Shown here piece after piece: positions 1-6,995 of a stretch of 6,995 nt of DNA. The notes below the pieces were generated by a model. That model saw only the letters and a program-made list of their open reading frames with translations, ran no database searches and was not told the origin of the DNA. Within the stretch, counting starts at the first letter, position 1. The number at the start of each line of letters is the position of its first letter. The stretch comes from a virus (Duplodnaviria > Heunggongvirae > Uroviricota > Caudoviricetes), in the IMG/VR virus record IMGVR_UViG_2675903654_000024, positions 1 through 6,995 of that record; one strand, written 5' to 3'. Both the position numbers and the translations under genes were made by a program.

Positions 1-1032
1 GAAGGCTGGGCCATACTCCTCCGGCAGAAGCAGAAAAAGCTTATTATGCTTCCATCGGAAACGATGATCTGGCAGCCTGAGTTCACAGATAAAACACTCT
101 CCAGGAAACCCGGGGCGGTTCAGATCGCAAGACAGGAACGGCTTGGGACGTCTGCCAATCAAAGCCTGCTTACATCCTTGCGTAACCTACGTGAAGAATT
201 AGCAAACCCTGCAACTGATTTGGATGTTACGTTTGATCTCTTGCGTCAGCACAGAACAGCATTTAGATCTAATGTTCAGGGAGATGCTATGGTCTTCCCC
301 AACCAGGCAAAAGCAGCTACCAATATGGTAGAGAATGCAATGTCAAAAGACCTTCGTAACGCAGTTGCTAAAAACCTCGGTGCATCAGACGCAGCAAAAT
401 ACCTTAAAGCAAATTCCGATTATGCAAACGTTTATAATAAGGTGCTTAATAAAAACATTGCTAACAAGCTCAATAAGGCAAGTAGTGAAGCCAGCCCTGA
501 ACTTATAAGTACCGTTGTATTAAGCAGAAAACCATCTGACGTGAAACGAATCTGGAGCGCACTGGATGATAAGGGGAAAGATGCTATGCGTGCAGCTTAC
601 GTCAGCAAAATAGCGGAAAAGGCCGGGGACTCTCCAGCCAAGTTCATCACTGAAGTTAATAAGCTGAAATCTCAGTCAGGCGGTGAAATTTACAACACTA
701 TTTTTTCTGGAAAGCACATGAAAGAGCTTGATGCTCTTCATGAAGTTCTACAGCAAACAGCAAGGTCAGACACCGCAAATGTAGTAACTCAGACGGGGCA
801 ATTGCAAGCCAACAGGATAAGGACGATTGGCGCAACTGCGACCCTTGGTGTATCACTGGGACTTGAGGCTGGTTTCGGTGCAATCATGCGCTTGTATGAG
901 TCCAAAGCAGCAAGGAATGCTCTCTTACGTCTGGCAAACACCAAAGCAGGAACGCCAGCCTATGAAAGAGCGTTAAGTAACGCTGCAAATGCCGTCAGGC
1001 CGCTGTTTGCTACTGAGGCAACACGGCAGTAA
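1..1032 (+). CDS. Virion ejection / DNA-transfer protein (P22 gp16-like), 3' portion; gene starts upstream of the window
   Basis: The reading frame of the listed 46..1032 ORF is open from base 1 (gaa ggc tgg ... no stop before the Met at 46), and there is no Shine-Dalgarno before the ATG at 46, so the gene most likely continues upstream. The protein is Ala/Lys/Asn/Ser-rich and low in complexity, typical of internal ejection proteins. Its position immediately upstream of the immI module matches the P22 order 16 - (sieA) - mnt - arc - ant - 9. Product assignment is by synteny and composition, not by recognised sequence identity. Confidence 0.5.
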
Positions 1033-1056
1033 CGTATGGGAAATTGGATTCAATCG

Positions 1057-1446
1057 CTAACATTTTCTTTTTACTTTTCCAACAAAAGCTTTGGTTGAAT
1101 CCATATTTCCATAACCGGAAATGGTTTTTGACATTAAAACTGTTCCAGTAGGATGTATTACCCATGAGTCGATAACGCGTTGAGTTTCGCCATTCGCGCC
1201 GATTCCTATGATGGAGTTTTTAGACAATTCTTTGTAAGCCATGCCGCCCGCATCTGTCCCAGAATATGTGATGCTGGCATCTTCACCGCTTGTCTTAATG
1301 ATGAATGTTCCACTAAAACCATCTTCTTCCGGATGGAAATTATTTCGCTCTGAATAGCTTATTCCGCGCATATCTCCAACGACCCAGCACTCTGCTGTAG
1401 CCCCAAAAGATATGAATAAGAACATAGCAGCAAGAAATTGCTTCAC
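1057..1446 (-). CDS. Sec-signal-peptide secreted/periplasmic protein of unknown function (prophage cargo gene)
   Basis: GTG start (plus-strand cac at 1444..1446) preceded on the coding strand by a strong AAGGAGG Shine-Dalgarno (plus-strand cctcctt at 1452..1458, 5-nt spacer). N-terminus MKQFLAAMFLFISFGATA/EC has a basic n-region, hydrophobic core and A-T-A cleavage motif. There is no lipobox (Cys is not at +1). The mature ~111 aa has two Cys, one near each end. Confidence 0.7.
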   Translation of the reverse strand: MKQFLAAMFLFISFGATAECWVVGDMRGISYSERNNFHPEEDGFSGTFIIKTSGEDASITYSGTDAGGMAYKELSKNSIIGIGANGETQRVIDSWVIHPTGTVLMSKTISGYGNMDSTKAFVGKVKRKC

Positions 1447-1814
1447 ACCAACCTCCTTAGTTTTGAGCAGGATACCAGATGATACTTTATTGGTGGAGTG
1501 GTGTGTGAAAACGTGTCAACGACAAACCATCCACAACTTGGACGAATGATTTAGCAAAAAGTGCTATTTTTGGTGTTTGGTGTCATAGAAACGTGAATAG
1601 CTTACTTTTCAACATTGCATGAAACTTGCAGGAAATGTGACATTACCTTATAGGTAACTTCGGCGAAAATGCAGTAAATGTGAAACGTAATGGTTTAAAC
1701 ATGTCGCTAAAGTGGTTGTAAGTTAGCCTCCGAAGGATTGCTGATAGCTTTGTTATAGTATTAAATGACATTTGACATAGTTGGATACTTAGCTGCGGCT
1801 ATCAAGATGGAGGT

Positions 1815-2264
1815 ATGTTTATGCTCACTTGTTTTGATGTCGCCGACTACTTCTTGGCGCATTGCGATGAAGAAAGTGGCGACATTATCTCTAACCTAAA
1901 AATTCAGAAGTTGACGTATTATGCCCAAGGGTTTTCTCTGGTTCTTCTGGGTAAGCCGCTATTTAATGAGAAAATTGAAGCCTGGATGCATGGGCCAGTA
2001 GTTCCTGAATTGTATCGTAAATATAGGGACTGTGGTAACGGCGCTTTACCTGCGCCAGAAAACTTTGACGCTAAAAAATTCAGTGAAGATGAAATTGAAT
2101 TGCTGGATGAGGTGTATAAAGTTTATGGTCAGTTTTCTGCCTGGAAACTGCGCAATATGACTCACGAAGAGCAGCCATGGAAAGATGCTTACATTGAGGG
2201 TGCGGTTAGCCAAGAAATCACACTTGATTCTATGAAAGGTTTTTTCAAAACGTTAATTAACTGA
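1815..2264 (+). CDS. Panacea/DUF4065-domain protein (PanA/SocA-type antitoxin-like)
   Basis: Residues ~27-67 (NLKIQKLTYYAQGFSLVLLGKPLFNEKIEAWMHGPVVPELY) match the signature I recall for DUF4065/Panacea 'phage-associated protein' family members (KLQKLLYYAQ ... GKPLF ... EAWxxGPVxPxxY). Size (147-149 aa) fits the family. GGAGG at 1809..1813 is 1 nt from the ATG at 1815 and 7 nt from the in-frame ATG at 1821, so 1821 is the more likely true start. TTGACA hexamer at 1772..1777 upstream. Confidence 0.7.
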   Translation: MFMLTCFDVADYFLAHCDEESGDIISNLKIQKLTYYAQGFSLVLLGKPLFNEKIEAWMHGPVVPELYRKYRDCGNGALPAPENFDAKKFSEDEIELLDEVYKVYGQFSAWKLRNMTHEEQPWKDAYIEGAVSQEITLDSMKGFFKTLIN

Positions 2265-2269
2265 CGTGT

Positions 2270-2692
2270 ATGTCTAGAGTTAAGGGAAGAATAAAACAGA
2301 GGGATAAAGAGAGCTCTGCTACTGTTGGCCTCTCTATCCATCACGAATCTCATGATGTAGACAAAAGTCCGCCTGTATTTTCTCTTAGATACCTACAAAA
2401 GGGGTATTGCCTAGATTGCTGCCAAAAGCATGAAAAGGCAGCATTTGCAGATAGGCTGTTCAGGTTAAGTCAGATGTCATGGGATGAGATACGAAAATCT
2501 GATAAACACGGGCTTGGGACGGAAAAAATTGCCAGAAACGCGATAAAGGCTCCGATTCCTAAGCATGTTACTCAAGATGTGGATTTCATTGCGTTCAGAT
2601 TTTGCTCTAAGGCACCTATGGTTGGTTATAAGATAGGAGCCACTTTTTATGTCTTATGGCTCGACAGGGAGTTCAAGCTATACAAGCACTAA
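2270..2692 (+). CDS. Hypothetical basic protein; candidate toxin/effector partner co-transcribed with the Panacea-domain gene
   Basis: ATG at 2270 lies 5 nt after the upstream stop (tga 2262..2264) with no independent Shine-Dalgarno, suggesting translational coupling. 140 aa, Lys/Arg/His-rich, no hydrophobic segment, a CLDCC cysteine cluster, and a C-terminus (GYKIGATFYVLWLDREFKLYKH) loosely reminiscent of RelE/ParE-type toxin C-termini; that resemblance is weak and unverified. Followed immediately by a strong intrinsic terminator. Confidence 0.6.
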   Translation: MSRVKGRIKQRDKESSATVGLSIHHESHDVDKSPPVFSLRYLQKGYCLDCCQKHEKAAFADRLFRLSQMSWDEIRKSDKHGLGTEKIARNAIKAPIPKHVTQDVDFIAFRFCSKAPMVGYKIGATFYVLWLDREFKLYKH

Positions 2693-2693
2693 T

Positions 2694-2719
2694 AAAACCC
2701 ACCGTCAGGTGGGTTTTTT
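2694..2719. terminator. Bidirectional rho-independent terminator between the convergent Panacea operon and the zinc-ribbon gene
   Basis: Perfect 10-bp stem AAAACCCACC (2694..2703) / GGTGGGTTTT (2708..2717), 4-nt loop GTCA, T-run 2714..2719 on the plus strand and an A-run on the left flank (U-run for the minus-strand transcript). Lies 1 nt after the stop of 2270..2692 and 17 nt after the stop of the minus-strand gene 2736..2939. Confidence 0.75.
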
Positions 2720-2735
2720 GTTGGAGATAAAATGG

Positions 2736-2939
2736 TTAACCAAATCGATCCTTAAAGCGTCTATCGCTGTTGCGTCTCTCCATTTTACTGTTGCAGTACG
2801 GACAAAGATGCTGTTTCTTTCCATCGATAGTCCATGTGAAGTACTTTTTCTTAAATCCAGCACCACAGATATCGCAACTTCTTGGTTTAAACATGCTGGC
2901 TATGAAGACAAGAACAACAAATCCTATGATCCATTCCAT
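2736..2939 (-). CDS. Small membrane-anchored zinc-ribbon protein (N-terminal transmembrane helix plus CxxC-N20-CxxC)
   Basis: 67 aa. N-terminal hydrophobic segment MEWIIGFVVLVFIASMF, then CDIC ... CPYC with about 20 residues between the Cys pairs (zinc-ribbon pattern), and a basic C-terminal tail. Weak AGGT ribosome-binding site upstream on the minus strand. The two overlapping plus-strand ORFs lack these protein-like features. Confidence 0.6.
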   Translation of the reverse strand: MEWIIGFVVLVFIASMFKPRSCDICGAGFKKKYFTWTIDGKKQHLCPYCNSKMERRNSDRRFKDRFG

Positions 2940-3080
2940 ATCATGTACCTGTTTTAACTTTATTTTTTGTTTTTTAGGGATTAATCAGAAACTTTATCTT
3001 GCGATTAAGCAAAGCTACTAGCTAACAAAAGAGTGCGTATACAATCAATCGTTTCACATCAACCTCAACAAGGAGAAATC

Positions 3081-3266
3081 ATGACCATAGAAGAACGCCT
3101 GAACAACATTGAGTTGAACCAAACCCTGCTTGACCAGCGACTTTCAGATCTTGAGCTTAAAGATCTTGATGCGCAAATATCAGAAGCAGAAGCCAAGCTC
3201 TCCAGCCTAAACCACCGCAAGAAGCAAATCCGCAACAGAATTACTCAGGGACGCGGAAGCTGTTGA
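3081..3266 (+). CDS. Small coiled-coil protein, hypothetical
   Basis: ATG at 3081 is preceded by AAGGAG (3070..3075) at 5-nt spacing. The listed ORF start at 3033 is a GTG without a good ribosome-binding site, so I take 3081 as the start (61 aa). Sequence is Glu/Leu/Lys/Asn-rich (IEERLNNIELNQTLLDQRLSDLELKDLDAQISEAEAKL), consistent with a coiled coil. Its 3' end overlaps the convergent gene 3241..3450 by 26 bp. Confidence 0.5.
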   Translation: MTIEERLNNIELNQTLLDQRLSDLELKDLDAQISEAEAKLSSLNHRKKQIRNRITQGRGSC

Positions 3267-3450
3267 GGTGGGATGCTAGGTCTCTATCGTTAAAATCAAG
3301 GCTGCTAATCATTTCATTGTAAATGGCGTTTTTATCTTCCATTGGCAGTCTTGAGTAAACCAGACACAGAGCATATTTCAGGGAGTTTAGCTCTTTCTCT
3401 AGCTCTTCCTTGCTTGACGTTTTTGACTTAATAAACTGTTTTTTATTCAT
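3241..3450 (-). CDS. Hypothetical 69-aa protein translationally coupled to the end of mnt
   Basis: Its start codon overlaps the mnt stop in an ATGA arrangement (plus-strand tcat at 3447..3450), the classic sign of co-transcription and translational coupling with the upstream Mnt-like gene. No recognisable domain. Confidence 0.55.
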   Translation of the reverse strand: MNKKQFIKSKTSSKEELEKELNSLKYALCLVYSRLPMEDKNAIYNEMISSLDFNDRDLASHLNSFRVPE

Positions 3451-3695
3451 TTTGCATCCTTACCATACATGGTTTTCAGTGTTTCAAGCAGCGCCTCTTT
3501 GAATTTGTCAGCTTCTTGCTGAGCAAATGACTCAACTGACTTTGGCGACCTATCTTCATCAATCGCGGCTTGCAAAATCATGACGATCTCGGAGTTAACA
3601 GAGCGACCATTTTTTGATGCTCTGACAGCAAGAGCCTCGCGCAAAGATTCAGGGATTCTTACCGTAGTTGGAGAAATTGACACACCCTTTGCCAT
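3447..3695 (-). CDS. mnt: Mnt-like ribbon-helix-helix repressor (immI maintenance-of-lysogeny repressor)
   Basis: 82 aa. The N-terminal segment VRIPESLREALAVRASKNGRSVNSEIVMILQAAI aligns with the P22 Mnt motif as I recall it (FRMPMEVREKLKFRAEANGRSMNSELLQIVQDAL). Divergent from an Arc-like gene, as in P22 immI. AGGTG Shine-Dalgarno upstream on the minus strand. Confidence 0.85.
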   Translation of the reverse strand: MAKGVSISPTTVRIPESLREALAVRASKNGRSVNSEIVMILQAAIDEDRSPKSVESFAQQEADKFKEALLETLKTMYGKDAK

Positions 3696-3809
3696 AGCAC
3701 ACCTTTGGTATTCAATTTGATATCAAAGTGTATGCAAAAGAAATTTGACTAGATATACTCACTTTGCTATCTTTTGTATTCGAAAAGAGTCGCTTGTGCG
3801 GAGGGTAAC
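3696..3809. promoter_or_regulatory. Divergent immI control region (candidate Pant, Pmnt and Arc/Mnt operators)
   Basis: 114-bp gap between divergent mnt and arc. Plus strand: TTGACT (3745..3750), 17 bp, TATCTT (3768..3773) as candidate Pant, about 35 nt upstream of arc. Inverted repeat AGATA (3751..3755) / TATCT (3768..3772) sits inside that spacer, where the Arc operator lies in P22. Perfect 12-bp palindrome TTTGATATCAAA at 3716..3727, 21 bp upstream of the mnt start. Operator assignments are by analogy to P22 only. Confidence 0.55.
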
Positions 3810-3962
3810 ATGGAGAAAGAAATAAGTAAGATTTTGGTAAGGATGCCGCAGTCGTTAAAGGACGCTATCGGTAGCAGGGCAAAGGAAGAATGCCGGTCGT
3901 TTAACTCGGAAGTGATTAAGCGGTTGATAGACAGCCTGAAGAGAGAGGGGATAACGGTGTGA
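3810..3962 (+). CDS. arc: Arc-like ribbon-helix-helix repressor
   Basis: The listed ORF starts at 3774, but the in-frame ATG at 3810 is preceded by GGAGGG (3800..3805), giving 50 aa. The sequence KILVRMPQSLKDAIGSRAKEECRSFNSEVIKRLIDSLKREG aligns with P22 Arc as I recall it (FNLRWPREVLDLVRKVAEENGRSVNSEIYQRVMESFKKEG). Divergent from mnt, upstream of ant. Confidence 0.85.
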   Translation: MEKEISKILVRMPQSLKDAIGSRAKEECRSFNSEVIKRLIDSLKREGITV

Positions 3963-4114
3963 TTCGCTTGGATGCAGTAGTCAAAGAGATTGCGATTACC
4001 ATTTTAAGACCAAATTTTGTTCATGGCGAATCATTTGGCACGAACGAAAAATTGAGAAGAGAAAGAGTATTCAGTGGCAAGCGCACATTTTCAGAAGTGA
4101 TGCTTGATGCGGCA

Positions 4115-4194
4115 AAGAAATCAAAACAGTGAAGCCCCAACTGCGGTAACAGTCAGGGCTTCGGTTGTCGGTAAATTCGTGGAGAAAAACCAAC
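4115..4194 (-). ncRNA. Candidate sar-like antisense RNA covering the ant ribosome-binding site (approximate ends)
   Basis: Minus-strand extended -10 (TGcTATACT; plus-strand AGTATA at 4201..4206 with gca at 4207..4209) would start transcription near 4193, running leftward across the ant Shine-Dalgarno (GGAGA 4181..4185). The hairpin at 4131..4162 forms a fully paired 13-bp stem (two G-U pairs, loop UUACCG) only in the minus-strand RNA, followed by U-rich ACUGUUUUGAUUUCUUU; the plus-strand version has two C-A mismatches. P22 has a ~69-nt sar RNA with this role. Ends are inferred, not measured. Confidence 0.4.
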
Positions 4195-5097
4195 ATGAAT
4201 AGTATAGCAATTTTAGAAGCAGTGAACACCTCTTACGTACCATTCAACGGTCAGCAAATTATCACCGCCATGGCTGCCGGAGTTGCATATGTTGCGATGA
4301 AGCCAATCGTTGAAAACCTTGGAATGAGCTGGTCAACGCAGCAAACAAAACTCATGAAGCAGATTAGCAAATTCAACTGTGTTCATATGAACATGGTTGC
4401 CGCTGATGGGAAGCTTCGTAAGCTACTCTGCCTTCCTTTGAAGAAGTTAAATGGATGGCTGTTCAGCATCAACCCCGAGAAAGTTCGAGCTGACATCCGC
4501 GATAAACTGATTCAGTACCAGGAAGAATGCTTTACTGTACTGCATGACTACTGGACAAAGGGAAAGGCAGAAAATGCACGTAAGAAAACATCTGTTGATG
4601 ACAGGACTCCGCTTCGTGATGCTGTAAATATGCTAGTCAGCAAAAAGCATCTAATGTACCCAGAAGCTTATGCAATGATTCATCAGCGTTTCAATGTGGA
4701 AAGTATTGAAGAGCTTGATGCATCTCAGATACCGCAAGCCGTAGAGTACATCCACAGGGTAGTGCTTGAAGGTGAGTTCATCGGCAAACAAGAGAAGAAG
4801 CCCAACGGGCTTTCCGCAAAAGAAACAGACATCCTTGTATGGCTGTGGGATTATGCCAACCGCTCACAGGCATTATTCCGCGAACTGTATCCGGCGCTGA
4901 AACAAATTCAATCGAACTATTCCGGCAGATGTCATGACTGCGGTTATGAGTTCTCCCGTATTATCGATATAGCGAGAGACGTTTTAATCAATCACACACT
5001 AGATGTTGATATTAATGAGCCAGACGGACCAACGAATCGTTCCGCATGGATGAGACTTAAGAATAAAGAATTACCTCCTTCAGTACATAACTACTGA
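4195..5097 (+). CDS. ant: Antirepressor Ant (P22 Ant-like)
   Basis: The listed ORF begins at a TTG (4165), but the in-frame ATG at 4195 follows GGAGA (4181..4185) and gives exactly 300 aa, the length of P22 Ant. It is directly downstream of arc and upstream of the tailspike gene, as in P22 immI. Identity is by synteny and length; my recall of the P22 Ant sequence itself is partial. Confidence 0.8.
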
Positions 5098-5115
5098 CAG
5101 ATAACCAACGCAACG

Positions 5116-5140
5116 ACCCAGCTTCGGCTGGGTTTTTTTT
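5116..5140 (+). terminator. Rho-independent terminator downstream of ant
   Basis: Stem ACCCAGC (5116..5122) / GCTGGGT (5127..5133) with a TTCG tetraloop, followed by an 8-T run (5133..5140), 19 nt after the ant stop codon. Confidence 0.8.
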
Positions 5141-5198
5141 ATGCCCAAAATTCACCGTAGCCATGCTGCGGCGATTCCTTGCATCTGGAGCAAATTAA

Positions 5199-6995
5199 AT
5201 GACAGACATTACAGCCAATGTGATCGTATCGATGCCTTCGCAACTCTTCACTATGGCGCGTTCTTTTAAAGCGGTTGCCAATGGCAAAATTTATATTGGT
5301 AAAATTGACACTGACCCTGTAAATCCTGAAAACCAGATTCAGGTTTATGTGGAGAACGAAGATGGTTCTCACGTCCCTGTTTCGCAACCAATCACCATTA
5401 ACGCTGCTGGTTATCCGGTATATAACGGACAGATTGCCAAGTTCGTAACTGTACAGAATCACTCCATGGCTGTTTATGATGCATATGGTGCACAACAATT
5501 CTATTATCCTGATCTACTTAAATATTCTCCAGACCAGTTAAGGGCTGAGCTTTCTGGCCCTGATGGCGCATCTCTGGTTGGTTATGGAGGCACAACCGTA
5601 AAGATTGAGCTGGAGATCTTGAAAGCTACACATGATTCATTAATTGATAAAACAGGATTTAACGCTATTGGCCGCTTTCTCAATCTTTCAGAGCTTCGCT
5701 CCTGTGTTCCAGAGGAGGCAGGGCAGATTGTATACGTAGCATCAGCAGCTAGCACTACACATGCTGAAAACCACCTTGGTGGCGGCTTTTTCGAGTCTGT
5801 TGATAACATTCAGGCGTGGGCTGATGATGGTGGAATTGTAATCAAGCCAGAAACTGGAACGATGGTATGGAGACGAATTAATTTTACCACTTACGACATG
5901 CAATTTTGGGGGGTGAAACCTGACGGAGTCACAGATAACGCAACAGCTATAACTCTTGCAACTAACTTTGCCCGCTCAAACAAATGCATTCTAGAGGCTC
6001 CTGCTGGAAACATAAATACATCAAAAACAATCCCAATTTATGACAATATGGGAATTAGAGGACAGGGAAAGGCTGAAGCGACAGTTTTTTATAAAACAAC
6101 AAATGACAAAATAGATCTCACAAAAAATGGAGAAGTAATTCTTCAGGTGGATGCATTATGTGCTTTTATACCAAAGCAATGGGATCTAACAGATAACTCA
6201 ATGAGTTCATTTTGTGTTAACGGTAGAGTTGAAAACTGCATGTTTAGAAGGCTTGGCTTAACACAAGAAAATGTAGATTCTTATAGAAATTATTACGGAC
6301 TGTTTTTAGGAAAATCAGCAGCACCAGTTATCAGACAGTCAATTTTTGAATGTGCTTATATCGGATGCTTCTCTTATGTGCCGTTCTCTGGCGTAATGGA
6401 AATGGTCGGTTTCCCACAATATCCAGGGAAAGGATATGCTGGAGTTTTATTTGAAGATTTTAGGGATGGTCAAATAAAAGTAATAGGCACTTCTATGGAT
6501 ATGCGCCTTGTTCAGGTTAACGGTTACCAGTTGTCATTTAGAATGTCAGGAATGCAATATACCACCATGACCAATTGTACTGCTGAAAACTGCACGCCAA
6601 TGGATGGGGAGTCAATTTGCTATGCATTTGATTTTGTAAATCCGTATTGCATTGTCATGAATACTTGTGCAACAGAATTTGTTAAGGGTGGGCAACTTCG
6701 TGTTAGCGTTCAGGGAAACCCATCATTCAGACCATCTATTATTGTCAATGGCTTTCTGCCAATTGATCAACAAAGCCCGGTAGTGCAAACACCTATAATA
6801 GATATTGATAATGGTGGCGTAGTTGAAATGAGTGTCATATTAAATGGTGGAGATTGGGCTATAAATCCATCTGCTACAAATTTAGCCGTACCAAGAGCAA
6901 GCGGAAATGGGTTGAAAGCAAGGTTAATAGGTGTAAACGGGTCGCCTGTTTCGATCTGGAGCGTGTCTCCTGGCGCAGATGTGAAGGAGTTCTAA
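5199..6995 (+). CDS. Tailspike protein: P22 gp9-like N-terminal head-binding domain fused to a divergent receptor-binding domain
   Basis: GGAG at 5187..5190, 8 nt before the ATG. The first ~113 aa ([34 protein letters not shown] ... DGSHV ... INAAG ... VYNGQ ... VTVQ.HSMA.YDA ... LKYSPDQ) closely match the P22 gp9 head-binding domain as I recall it. The remaining ~485 aa has no similarity I recognise to the P22 receptor-binding domain; it is Asn/Gly/Cys-rich with recurring VNG/LNG/IDNGG motifs suggesting a beta-helix or beta-rich fold. Complete ORF ending at taa 6993..6995. Confidence 0.9.

Follow-up and report, generated by a model that had tools for sequence, protein, structure and literature searches.

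A P22-type tailspike with a receptor-binding module of the O103 subtype in an Escherichia coli prophage

Introduction

The P22 gp9 endorhamnosidase, Sf6 gp14 and the HK620 tailspike share an overall plan, in which an anchor is joined to a beta-helix enzyme. Among the receptor-binding proteins (RBPs) of Escherichia coli phages, an "O103 RBP subtype" was defined with Ro103C3lw, for which host range was known at the phage level, TL-2011b, and the RBP of a Lederbergvirus prophage in the O103 strain RHB38-C21 (PMC10408124). Pas et al. (2024) added PAS7 to the subtype, reported plaque halos, and placed the predicted active site in two groups of acidic residues (PMC11522302). An R2 tailocin grafted with the receptor-binding domain (RBD) of PAS7 kills O103 strains (PMC11762384), and entry of CBA120 grafted with the RBD of Ro103C3lw into O103 cells was reported by luciferase (PMC12737597). 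Here, the tailspike gene at the end of a 6,995-nucleotide (nt) stretch of viral DNA (IMG/VR record IMGVR_UViG_2675903654_000024, positions 1 to 6,995; hereafter the window) was analyzed. Its product joins a P22-type head-binding domain to a beta-helix module that, by similarity, belongs to the O103 RBP subtype.

The closest described relatives carry this module on other anchors. TL-2011b is an epsilon15-like prophage (Uetakevirus) of the Norwegian E. coli O103:H25 outbreak strain, and its spike (AEW24599.1 / YP_007001999.1) has an anchor of approximately 215 amino acids (aa) of the epsilon15/PhiV10 type, whereas the window spike has the 113-aa P22 head-binding domain. PAS7 (Cepavirus) and Ro103C3lw (Kayfunavirus) are lytic phages with different short N-terminal anchors and no acyltransferase partner; nearly their full RBD can be aligned with that of the window spike, and their targeting of O103 is experimentally supported. 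Judging from the sequences, their fine specificity, such as the tolerance of O-antigen modifications, could differ from that of the window spike. A P22-type anchor carrying an exchanged beta-helix RBD is a published arrangement, as are the O103 subtype and its version in a Lederbergvirus.

Receptor-binding module

The spike open reading frame (ORF) is complete and encodes 598 aa, its stop codon being the final codon of the window (Table 1). Residues 1–113 matched the Pfam domain Head_binding (PF09008) from end to end (model 1–113 of 113, E = 1.4e-64, 215.8 bits against a cutoff of 24). The head-binding domains of the P22, Sf6 and HK620 tailspikes, which are encoded at a like gene position, were homologous (E values of 2e-47 to 5e-62); the Sf6 gp14 structure matched aa 1–118 (E = 5e-62) and the P22 gp9 structure aa 1–117 (E = 2e-47). 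By analogy with the trimeric head-binding domains of P22 and Sf6, the window spike would assemble as a homotrimer. The head-binding part is present in more than 1,000 E. coli genomes.

In the PDB sequence search, the similarity to P22, Sf6 and HK620 ended by aa ~118, and the RBD had no significant match to theirs; a second Sf6 stretch beyond aa 118 was insignificant (i-Evalue 4.9e+02). At the DNA level, the matches to other P22-like phages broke off at window nt 5509–5545. As protein and DNA matches end at the same place, the domain junction at nt ~5530–5550 was considered real.

The RBD was then assigned by its homologues. In a translated search of phage genomes, TL-2011b was 93.4% identical at the aa level over 99% of the query, followed by vB_EcoP_PAS7 (51%; 49–51% across the comparisons made) and vB_EcoP-Ro103C3lw (42%), both with O103 hosts, after which Aeromonas and Enterococcus phages ranked next. 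By these similarities, the module falls within the O103 RBP subtype. For this family, O103 specificity is experimentally supported at 42–51% identity to the window spike, and for the TL-2011b spike it is predicted. A large protein database contained 230 homologues of the RBD, all of which were labeled with Pfam PF27114 (Phage_tail_beta); membership of the window spike in this family was taken from the precomputed label on the exact protein and on P0001, the representative of its 99%-identical cluster. PF27114 sits behind at least four unrelated anchors, namely, the P22-type PF09008, PF18668, the 697-aa TL-2011b type and the short PAS7 type, and its members occur in Escherichia, Yersinia, Cronobacter, Cedecea, Proteus and others. 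The local Pfam scan of the RBD gave nothing above the threshold and only a sub-threshold Pect-lyase_RHGA_epim match, because PF27114 is newer than the library used.

A preliminary description of the window, made from the sequence alone, had called residues 1 to ~113 P22 gp9-like and the remainder, after a junction at nt ~5530, completely divergent from P22, and had proposed a modular exchange of the RBD. All three statements were confirmed, as a conserved head-binding domain is followed by an exchanged RBD with a specificity differing from that of P22. The RBD had also been regarded as divergent and uncharacterised, and this part did not hold: residues ~117–598 are clearly homologous over their full length to tailspike RBDs assigned to O103. 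Module swapping of this kind is a textbook case and not a new kind of protein.

The fold of the module was read from a predicted model of the spike, which had a predicted local distance difference test (pLDDT) score of 91.2 and a predicted template modeling (pTM) score of 0.85. The best structural matches of the model were phage tailspike depolymerases (24qi, 6eu4, CBA120 TSP2 and the Klebsiella K2 depolymerases), at a sequence identity of just 11–20% and without a close relative of solved structure. The gp86 protein of Acinetobacter phage Belisarius (24qi), AS12 gp42 (6eu4) and CBA120 TSP2 (5w6p) were 15–19% identical to the spike and act on other substrates (Acinetobacter capsules, O157). 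The PDB sequence search with the RBD gave weak partial matches only, to Klebsiella and Acinetobacter depolymerases (E values of 3e-5 to 1e-4), and the PDB holds no solved structure of the O103 family. The fold class is clear in the model, namely, a right-handed parallel beta-helix like that of the solved tailspike depolymerases.

Serogroup of the hosts

The O103 assignment was tested independently on the O-antigen loci of strains that carry the spike gene. The loci were read directly in the carriers among complete genomes, a set that lies apart from the window's own assembly, GCA_001285905.1. Among 5,426 complete genomes of E. coli, only six carried the full-length spike gene. O103 wzx and wzy were present in four of these six (four of five independent strains), compared with a background of 32 in 5,426 genomes (hypergeometric P = 1.5e-8). 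When S56, APEC20/16, 33-6 and 58-3, which carry parts of the gene, were included, O103 was found in 8 of 10 carriers (hypergeometric P = 2.5e-17). The spike therefore shares with the O103 subtype a host of the same serogroup, and binding of O103 by the window spike itself is predicted from the homology and from this host association.

Proposed function and alternatives

Taken together, it is likely that the protein is a trimeric spike with a P22-type anchor, which binds the O103 O-antigen along its beta-helix and cleaves it as an endoglycosidase. The N-terminal 113 residues would anchor the trimer to the tail, and from residue ~150 onward the beta-helix module of the O103 RBP subtype would recognize the O103 O-antigen. 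The module's most likely activity, judged from tailspike depolymerases of similar structure, is that of an endoglycosidase using conserved Glu/Asp residues, for which E293/E384 and E463/E493/D523 are the candidates. Cleavage of the O-antigen would then let the virion reach the outer membrane. Six of the seven acidic residues predicted for PAS7 are kept in the window spike (Table 1), and E293, E384, E463 and E493 were at least 90% conserved across 51 homologues. The preliminary description had suspected an uncharacterised glycan-degrading activity. This applies to the cleavage chemistry of the family, as the bond cleaved and the catalytic residues have been predicted for PAS7 alone, in silico (PMC11522302), but not to the specificity, which is published as O103.

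Several points weigh against this proposal. No experiment has been published on the window spike or on the TL-2011b spike, the relatives with experimental support are just 42–51% identical to the window spike, and the literature shows biochemical cleavage for no member of the O103 family. The PAS7 candidate acid E348 corresponds to Asn464 here, as in TL-2011b. Moreover, the structure model is a monomer only, so that an inter-subunit active site lies outside its scope, and the candidate carboxylates were placed by alignment to PAS7. In place of serology, the serogroup calls used RefSeq wzx/wzy annotation and matches to named strains of O103:H2 at a DNA identity of 99% or more. Finally, two carriers, GSH8M-2 and WP8-S18-CRE-02, which represent one strain, are O184 and not O103.

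The O184 strain raises the question of whether the RBD recognizes a receptor other or broader than O103, for example a sugar epitope of the dTDP-Fuc3N type common to O103 and O184, and thus several serogroups. The first 4.9 kb of the O103 and O184 clusters (galF, rfbB, rfbA, a 3,4-ketoisomerase, a GNAT acyltransferase and an aminotransferase) are 92.6% identical, so a related 3-amino-3,6-dideoxyhexose is probably present in both O-antigens. In their central wzx, wzy and glycosyltransferase genes, in contrast, the clusters are unrelated. Only one independent strain among 11 O184 genomes has the gene, and its prophage is a decayed remnant near paoD, riddled with insertion sequences (IS), in which an IS3 element splits the spike gene. 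This lone disrupted copy is consistent with a switch of O-antigen after an old lysogeny, and the intact spike copies examined were all in O103 hosts. The carrier itself is compatible with either such a switch or the shared sugar; another or broader receptor is, on the whole of this evidence, quite improbable. As GSH8M-2 was the first host typed, the idea that the O103 assignment was wrong had been considered; it was dropped in view of the IS-disrupted copy, the decayed prophage and the other carriers, which were all O103.

A second alternative to endoglycosidase action on O103 is that the module binds the O-antigen without hydrolysis or acts on it by another chemistry, such as that of a lyase or deacylase. 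Against this, the closest structural matches are the tailspike depolymerases named above, PAS7 forms plaques with halos (PMC11522302), and the four Glu residues conserved among the 51 homologues are buried. In the case of a lyase, the O103 gene cluster was read without a gene dedicated to the uronic acid that such an enzyme needs, which is a deduction from the genes and not a structure determination. This alternative is therefore considered unlikely.

Mosaic structure

The boundaries of the module were located by comparison with TL-2011b, whose RBD is 93% identical overall. This identity is unevenly distributed. Over the neck (codons 114–149), the two genes are only 47% identical at the nt level and 42% at the aa level, whereas codons 150–559 are 96.8% identical in nt and differ by 3 aa in 410 (99.3% aa identity), with a synonymous divergence (dS) of 0.135 and a nonsynonymous-to-synonymous ratio (dN/dS) of 0.04. 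Over codons 560–598, the identity falls to 75% in nt, and 11 of 39 aa differ (72% identical). The jump in identity at codon ~150 places the exchange point with the epsilon15-like lineage at nt ~5645, approximately 100 nt past the end of the head-binding domain, and the dS and dN/dS values indicate long divergence under strong purifying selection rather than a fresh transfer. In the proposed history, the module was gained by recombination with its left breakpoint at codon ~150. It is common to the unrelated epsilon15-like prophage TL-2011b, and the shared block continues past the window through an AT3-family acyltransferase gene. In the structure model, the neck consists of helices with a pLDDT of 58–88.

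The boundary at codon ~150 was unusually sharp, since the neck with 47% nt identity lies directly beside a block of 97–99% nt identity.

A second P22-type spike, designated allele B (protein cluster P0067), was found in the O103 E. coli strains APEC20/16 and S56. It is equal in length to the window spike (allele A) and 96–100% identical over aa 1–245, its neck in APEC20/16 being 100% identical in aa. The two alleles part at codon 246 (nt 5934), from where the GC content falls to 0.38; beyond it, the identity is 61% over aa 246–559 and 28% over the C-terminal cap. Moreover, allele B is followed by a glucosylation module of the gtrA/gtrB/gtrC type, where the window spike has the acyltransferase. 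The Lederbergvirus RBP of RHB38-C21 (CP057085.1; Pas et al. 2023) is probably a further P22-type spike of this kind, of either allele.

The spike contributes a naturally occurring O103-specific receptor-binding module on a P22 anchor and a further well-resolved example of tailspike module exchange. The beta-helix is nearly identical in the two unrelated types of prophage and begins at a sharp breakpoint, codon ~150, which offers a natural splice point for engineering. The additions to published work are modest, namely, the serogroup statistics, the precise breakpoints, two alleles with different conversion partners, and an RBD–acyltransferase cassette.

Base composition

The preliminary description had further claimed a drop to AT-rich DNA after the domain junction, from hand counts of two 60-nt samples. 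Both counts were correct (GC of 0.483 and 0.317) but unrepresentative, and the shift at the junction disappeared on fuller analysis, the GC content being 0.412 for nt 5199–5540 and 0.412 for nt 5541–6995. The first 460 nt past the junction are in fact the GC-richest part of the gene (0.461). A GC trough of ~0.35 lies at nt ~5920–6500, beginning ~400 nt downstream of the junction, and contains the lowest 400-nt stretch of the window, ~2.6 standard deviations below the mean. The best single change point was nt 6007, with weak support (log-likelihood ratio of 2.9). A GC shift at the domain junction was consequently rejected.

These values bear on the strict form of the earlier interpretation, in which the RBD is an AT-rich, recently imported domain of unknown origin and novel, uncharacterised specificity. 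Codons 246–559 (GC of 0.380) and the adjacent acyltransferase gene (0.295) do lie below the rest of the prophage segment (0.428), and the RBD lacks a sequence-level match to those of P22, Sf6 and HK620. However, the mean GC content is equal on both sides of the junction, the module belongs to a large known family (230 homologues, PF27114) with a published specificity (PMC10408124), and the divergence from TL-2011b (dS of 0.135, dN/dS of 0.04) indicates long coexistence under purifying selection. A novel import is thus largely refuted and very improbable. The preliminary description had named two outcomes that would speak against its own reading, which were clear homology of residues 114–598 to an RBD of known specificity and the disappearance of the compositional shift; with the O103-assigned homologues and the even GC content at the junction, both were largely obtained.

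It had also noted many Cys residues and repeated VNG/LNG/IDNGG motifs in the C-terminal body. The spike contains 12 Cys, every one after aa 113 (2.5%), and VNG occurs four times. LNG and DNGG occur once each, and of the Cys residues only C347, C460 and C490 were kept by 46 or more of the 51 homologues. The VNG, LNG and DNGG sequences are ordinary turn motifs of a beta-helix.

Downstream acyltransferase

The region downstream was read in loci that carry the spike gene and extend past the window. After a spacer of 70 nt from the spike stop codon, a 369-aa Acyl_transf_3 protein is encoded (PHROG O-acetyltransferase, E = 2e-79), and of the six contexts shown for the exact spike protein, five have a called gene of this type after it. 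Across the spacer and the acyltransferase gene, the nt identity to the TL-2011b equivalent is ~89%, and similarity does not extend past the 3' end of that gene. The unit common to both prophage types is therefore the beta-helix together with the acyltransferase.

O-acetyltransferases of this kind are known from other phages: Oac of Sf6 blocks the Sf6 endorhamnosidase, and the Oac homologue of PhiV10 converts O157 and prevents infection by PhiV10 (PMC9558356, PMC11854483). By analogy, the acyltransferase probably modifies the O103 O-antigen of the lysogen and thereby blocks superinfection (lysogenic conversion). It is conceivable, and we propose it only tentatively, that the ~2.5-kb stretch from codon ~150 to the end of the acyltransferase gene is a mobile cassette of attack plus self-protection, exchanged between unrelated temperate podoviruses (P22-like and epsilon15-like), with allele A tied to acetylation and allele B to glucosylation by gtrABC. 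In that case, each allele may have diverged to escape or exploit the serotype conversion tied to the other, and this would amount to an arms race between phages on one O-antigen.

Genomic context

The window is identical to positions 3–6997 of contig CYFR01000079.1 in the E. coli assembly GCA_001285905.1 and spans the right end of a P22-like prophage. An ejection protein of the gp16 type is present as its C-terminal part and is followed by a variable "moron" stretch, the Mnt/Arc-type repressors, Ant and the spike ORF. Pfam matches in the immI-type region were Arc and P22_AR_N/C, and with mnt, arc and ant directly upstream, the spike gene occupies the canonical P22 position. The contigs carrying the exact spike protein had gp7, gp20 and gp16 homologues upstream, and a copy 99.1% identical to the spike lay inside a P22-like prophage that was complete and encoded portal, P22 coat, gp4, gp10, needle and ejection proteins. 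The gene order is thus P22-like (Lederbergvirus-type), with the spike after mnt-arc-ant at the end of the virion block. Table 1 summarizes the coordinates.

Table 1. Positions of the spike gene, its parts and associated features. Coordinates refer to the window unless a locus is named.
Feature	Coordinates	Strand	Remarks
Complete tailspike gene	5199..6995	+	598 codons plus stop; last gene of the window
P22/Sf6-type head-binding (particle-anchor) domain	5199..5537	+	Codons 1-113
Neck/linker (LVGYG region)	5538..5645	+	Codons 114-149; specific to P22-type O103 spikes
Right-handed beta-helix body (receptor-binding, presumed O103 O-antigen glycosidase)	5646..6875	+	Codons 150-559
C-terminal cap	6876..6992	+	Codons 560-598; more diverged from TL-2011b
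Span of candidate catalytic carboxylates	6075..6677	+	E293, E384, E463 and E493 inside; D282 and D523 just outside
Candidate D282	6042-6044		PAS7 D166
Candidate E293	6075-6077		PAS7 E177
Candidate E384	6348-6350		PAS7 E268
Candidate E463	6585-6587		PAS7 E347
Candidate E493	6675-6677		PAS7 E377
Candidate D523	6765-6767		PAS7 D407
Upstream P22 immI-type region	3447..5097	.	Holds Mnt/Arc-like repressor, Arc and Ant
Mnt/Arc-like repressor	3447-3695	minus	
Arc	3774-3962	plus	
Antirepressor Ant	4165-5097	plus	
AT3-family acyltransferase gene	Equivalent to 7066-8175		Just past the window; L024 7068-8177, L002 21868-22977, L001 7520-8626
Allele-B spike of APEC20/16	L027 3465-5261		gtr-type genes downstream at 5308-7750
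Loci read in the O184 carrier	L011 9001-12133; L013 22805-26672		GSH8M-2; identical in WP8-S18-CRE-02

In a megablast of the whole window, approximately 170 of the matching records were named as Shiga toxin (Stx)-converting phages (Stx1, Stx1a, Stx2, Stx2a and Stx2c), and the best match was at least 99% in 74 records overall. These records were considered as possible matches to the RBD and ruled out, as only TL-2011b matches nt 5540–6995 at the DNA level; their matches do not lie within nt 1040–3040 either.

Several ORFs lie in the upstream part of the window. On the minus strand, nt 1057–1446 form a 129-aa ORF that lacks a Pfam match and whose product resembles a signal peptide at its N-terminus (MKQFLAAMFLFISFGATAEC...). 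This ORF occupies the position of sieA in P22 and is called as a gene in public contigs. On the plus strand, an ORF at nt 1815–2264 contains a SocA/Panacea antitoxin domain (PF13274, E = 2e-24), and a 140-aa ORF without a Pfam match starts 5 nt after it (nt 2270–2692). Together, these two ORFs may form a toxin-antitoxin pair of the Panacea type, present as a moron between the gene for the ejection protein and the immI region. The stretch at nt ~1440–2720 is common to phages E212 and EC.P3 (98.4%) and Emek (90%).
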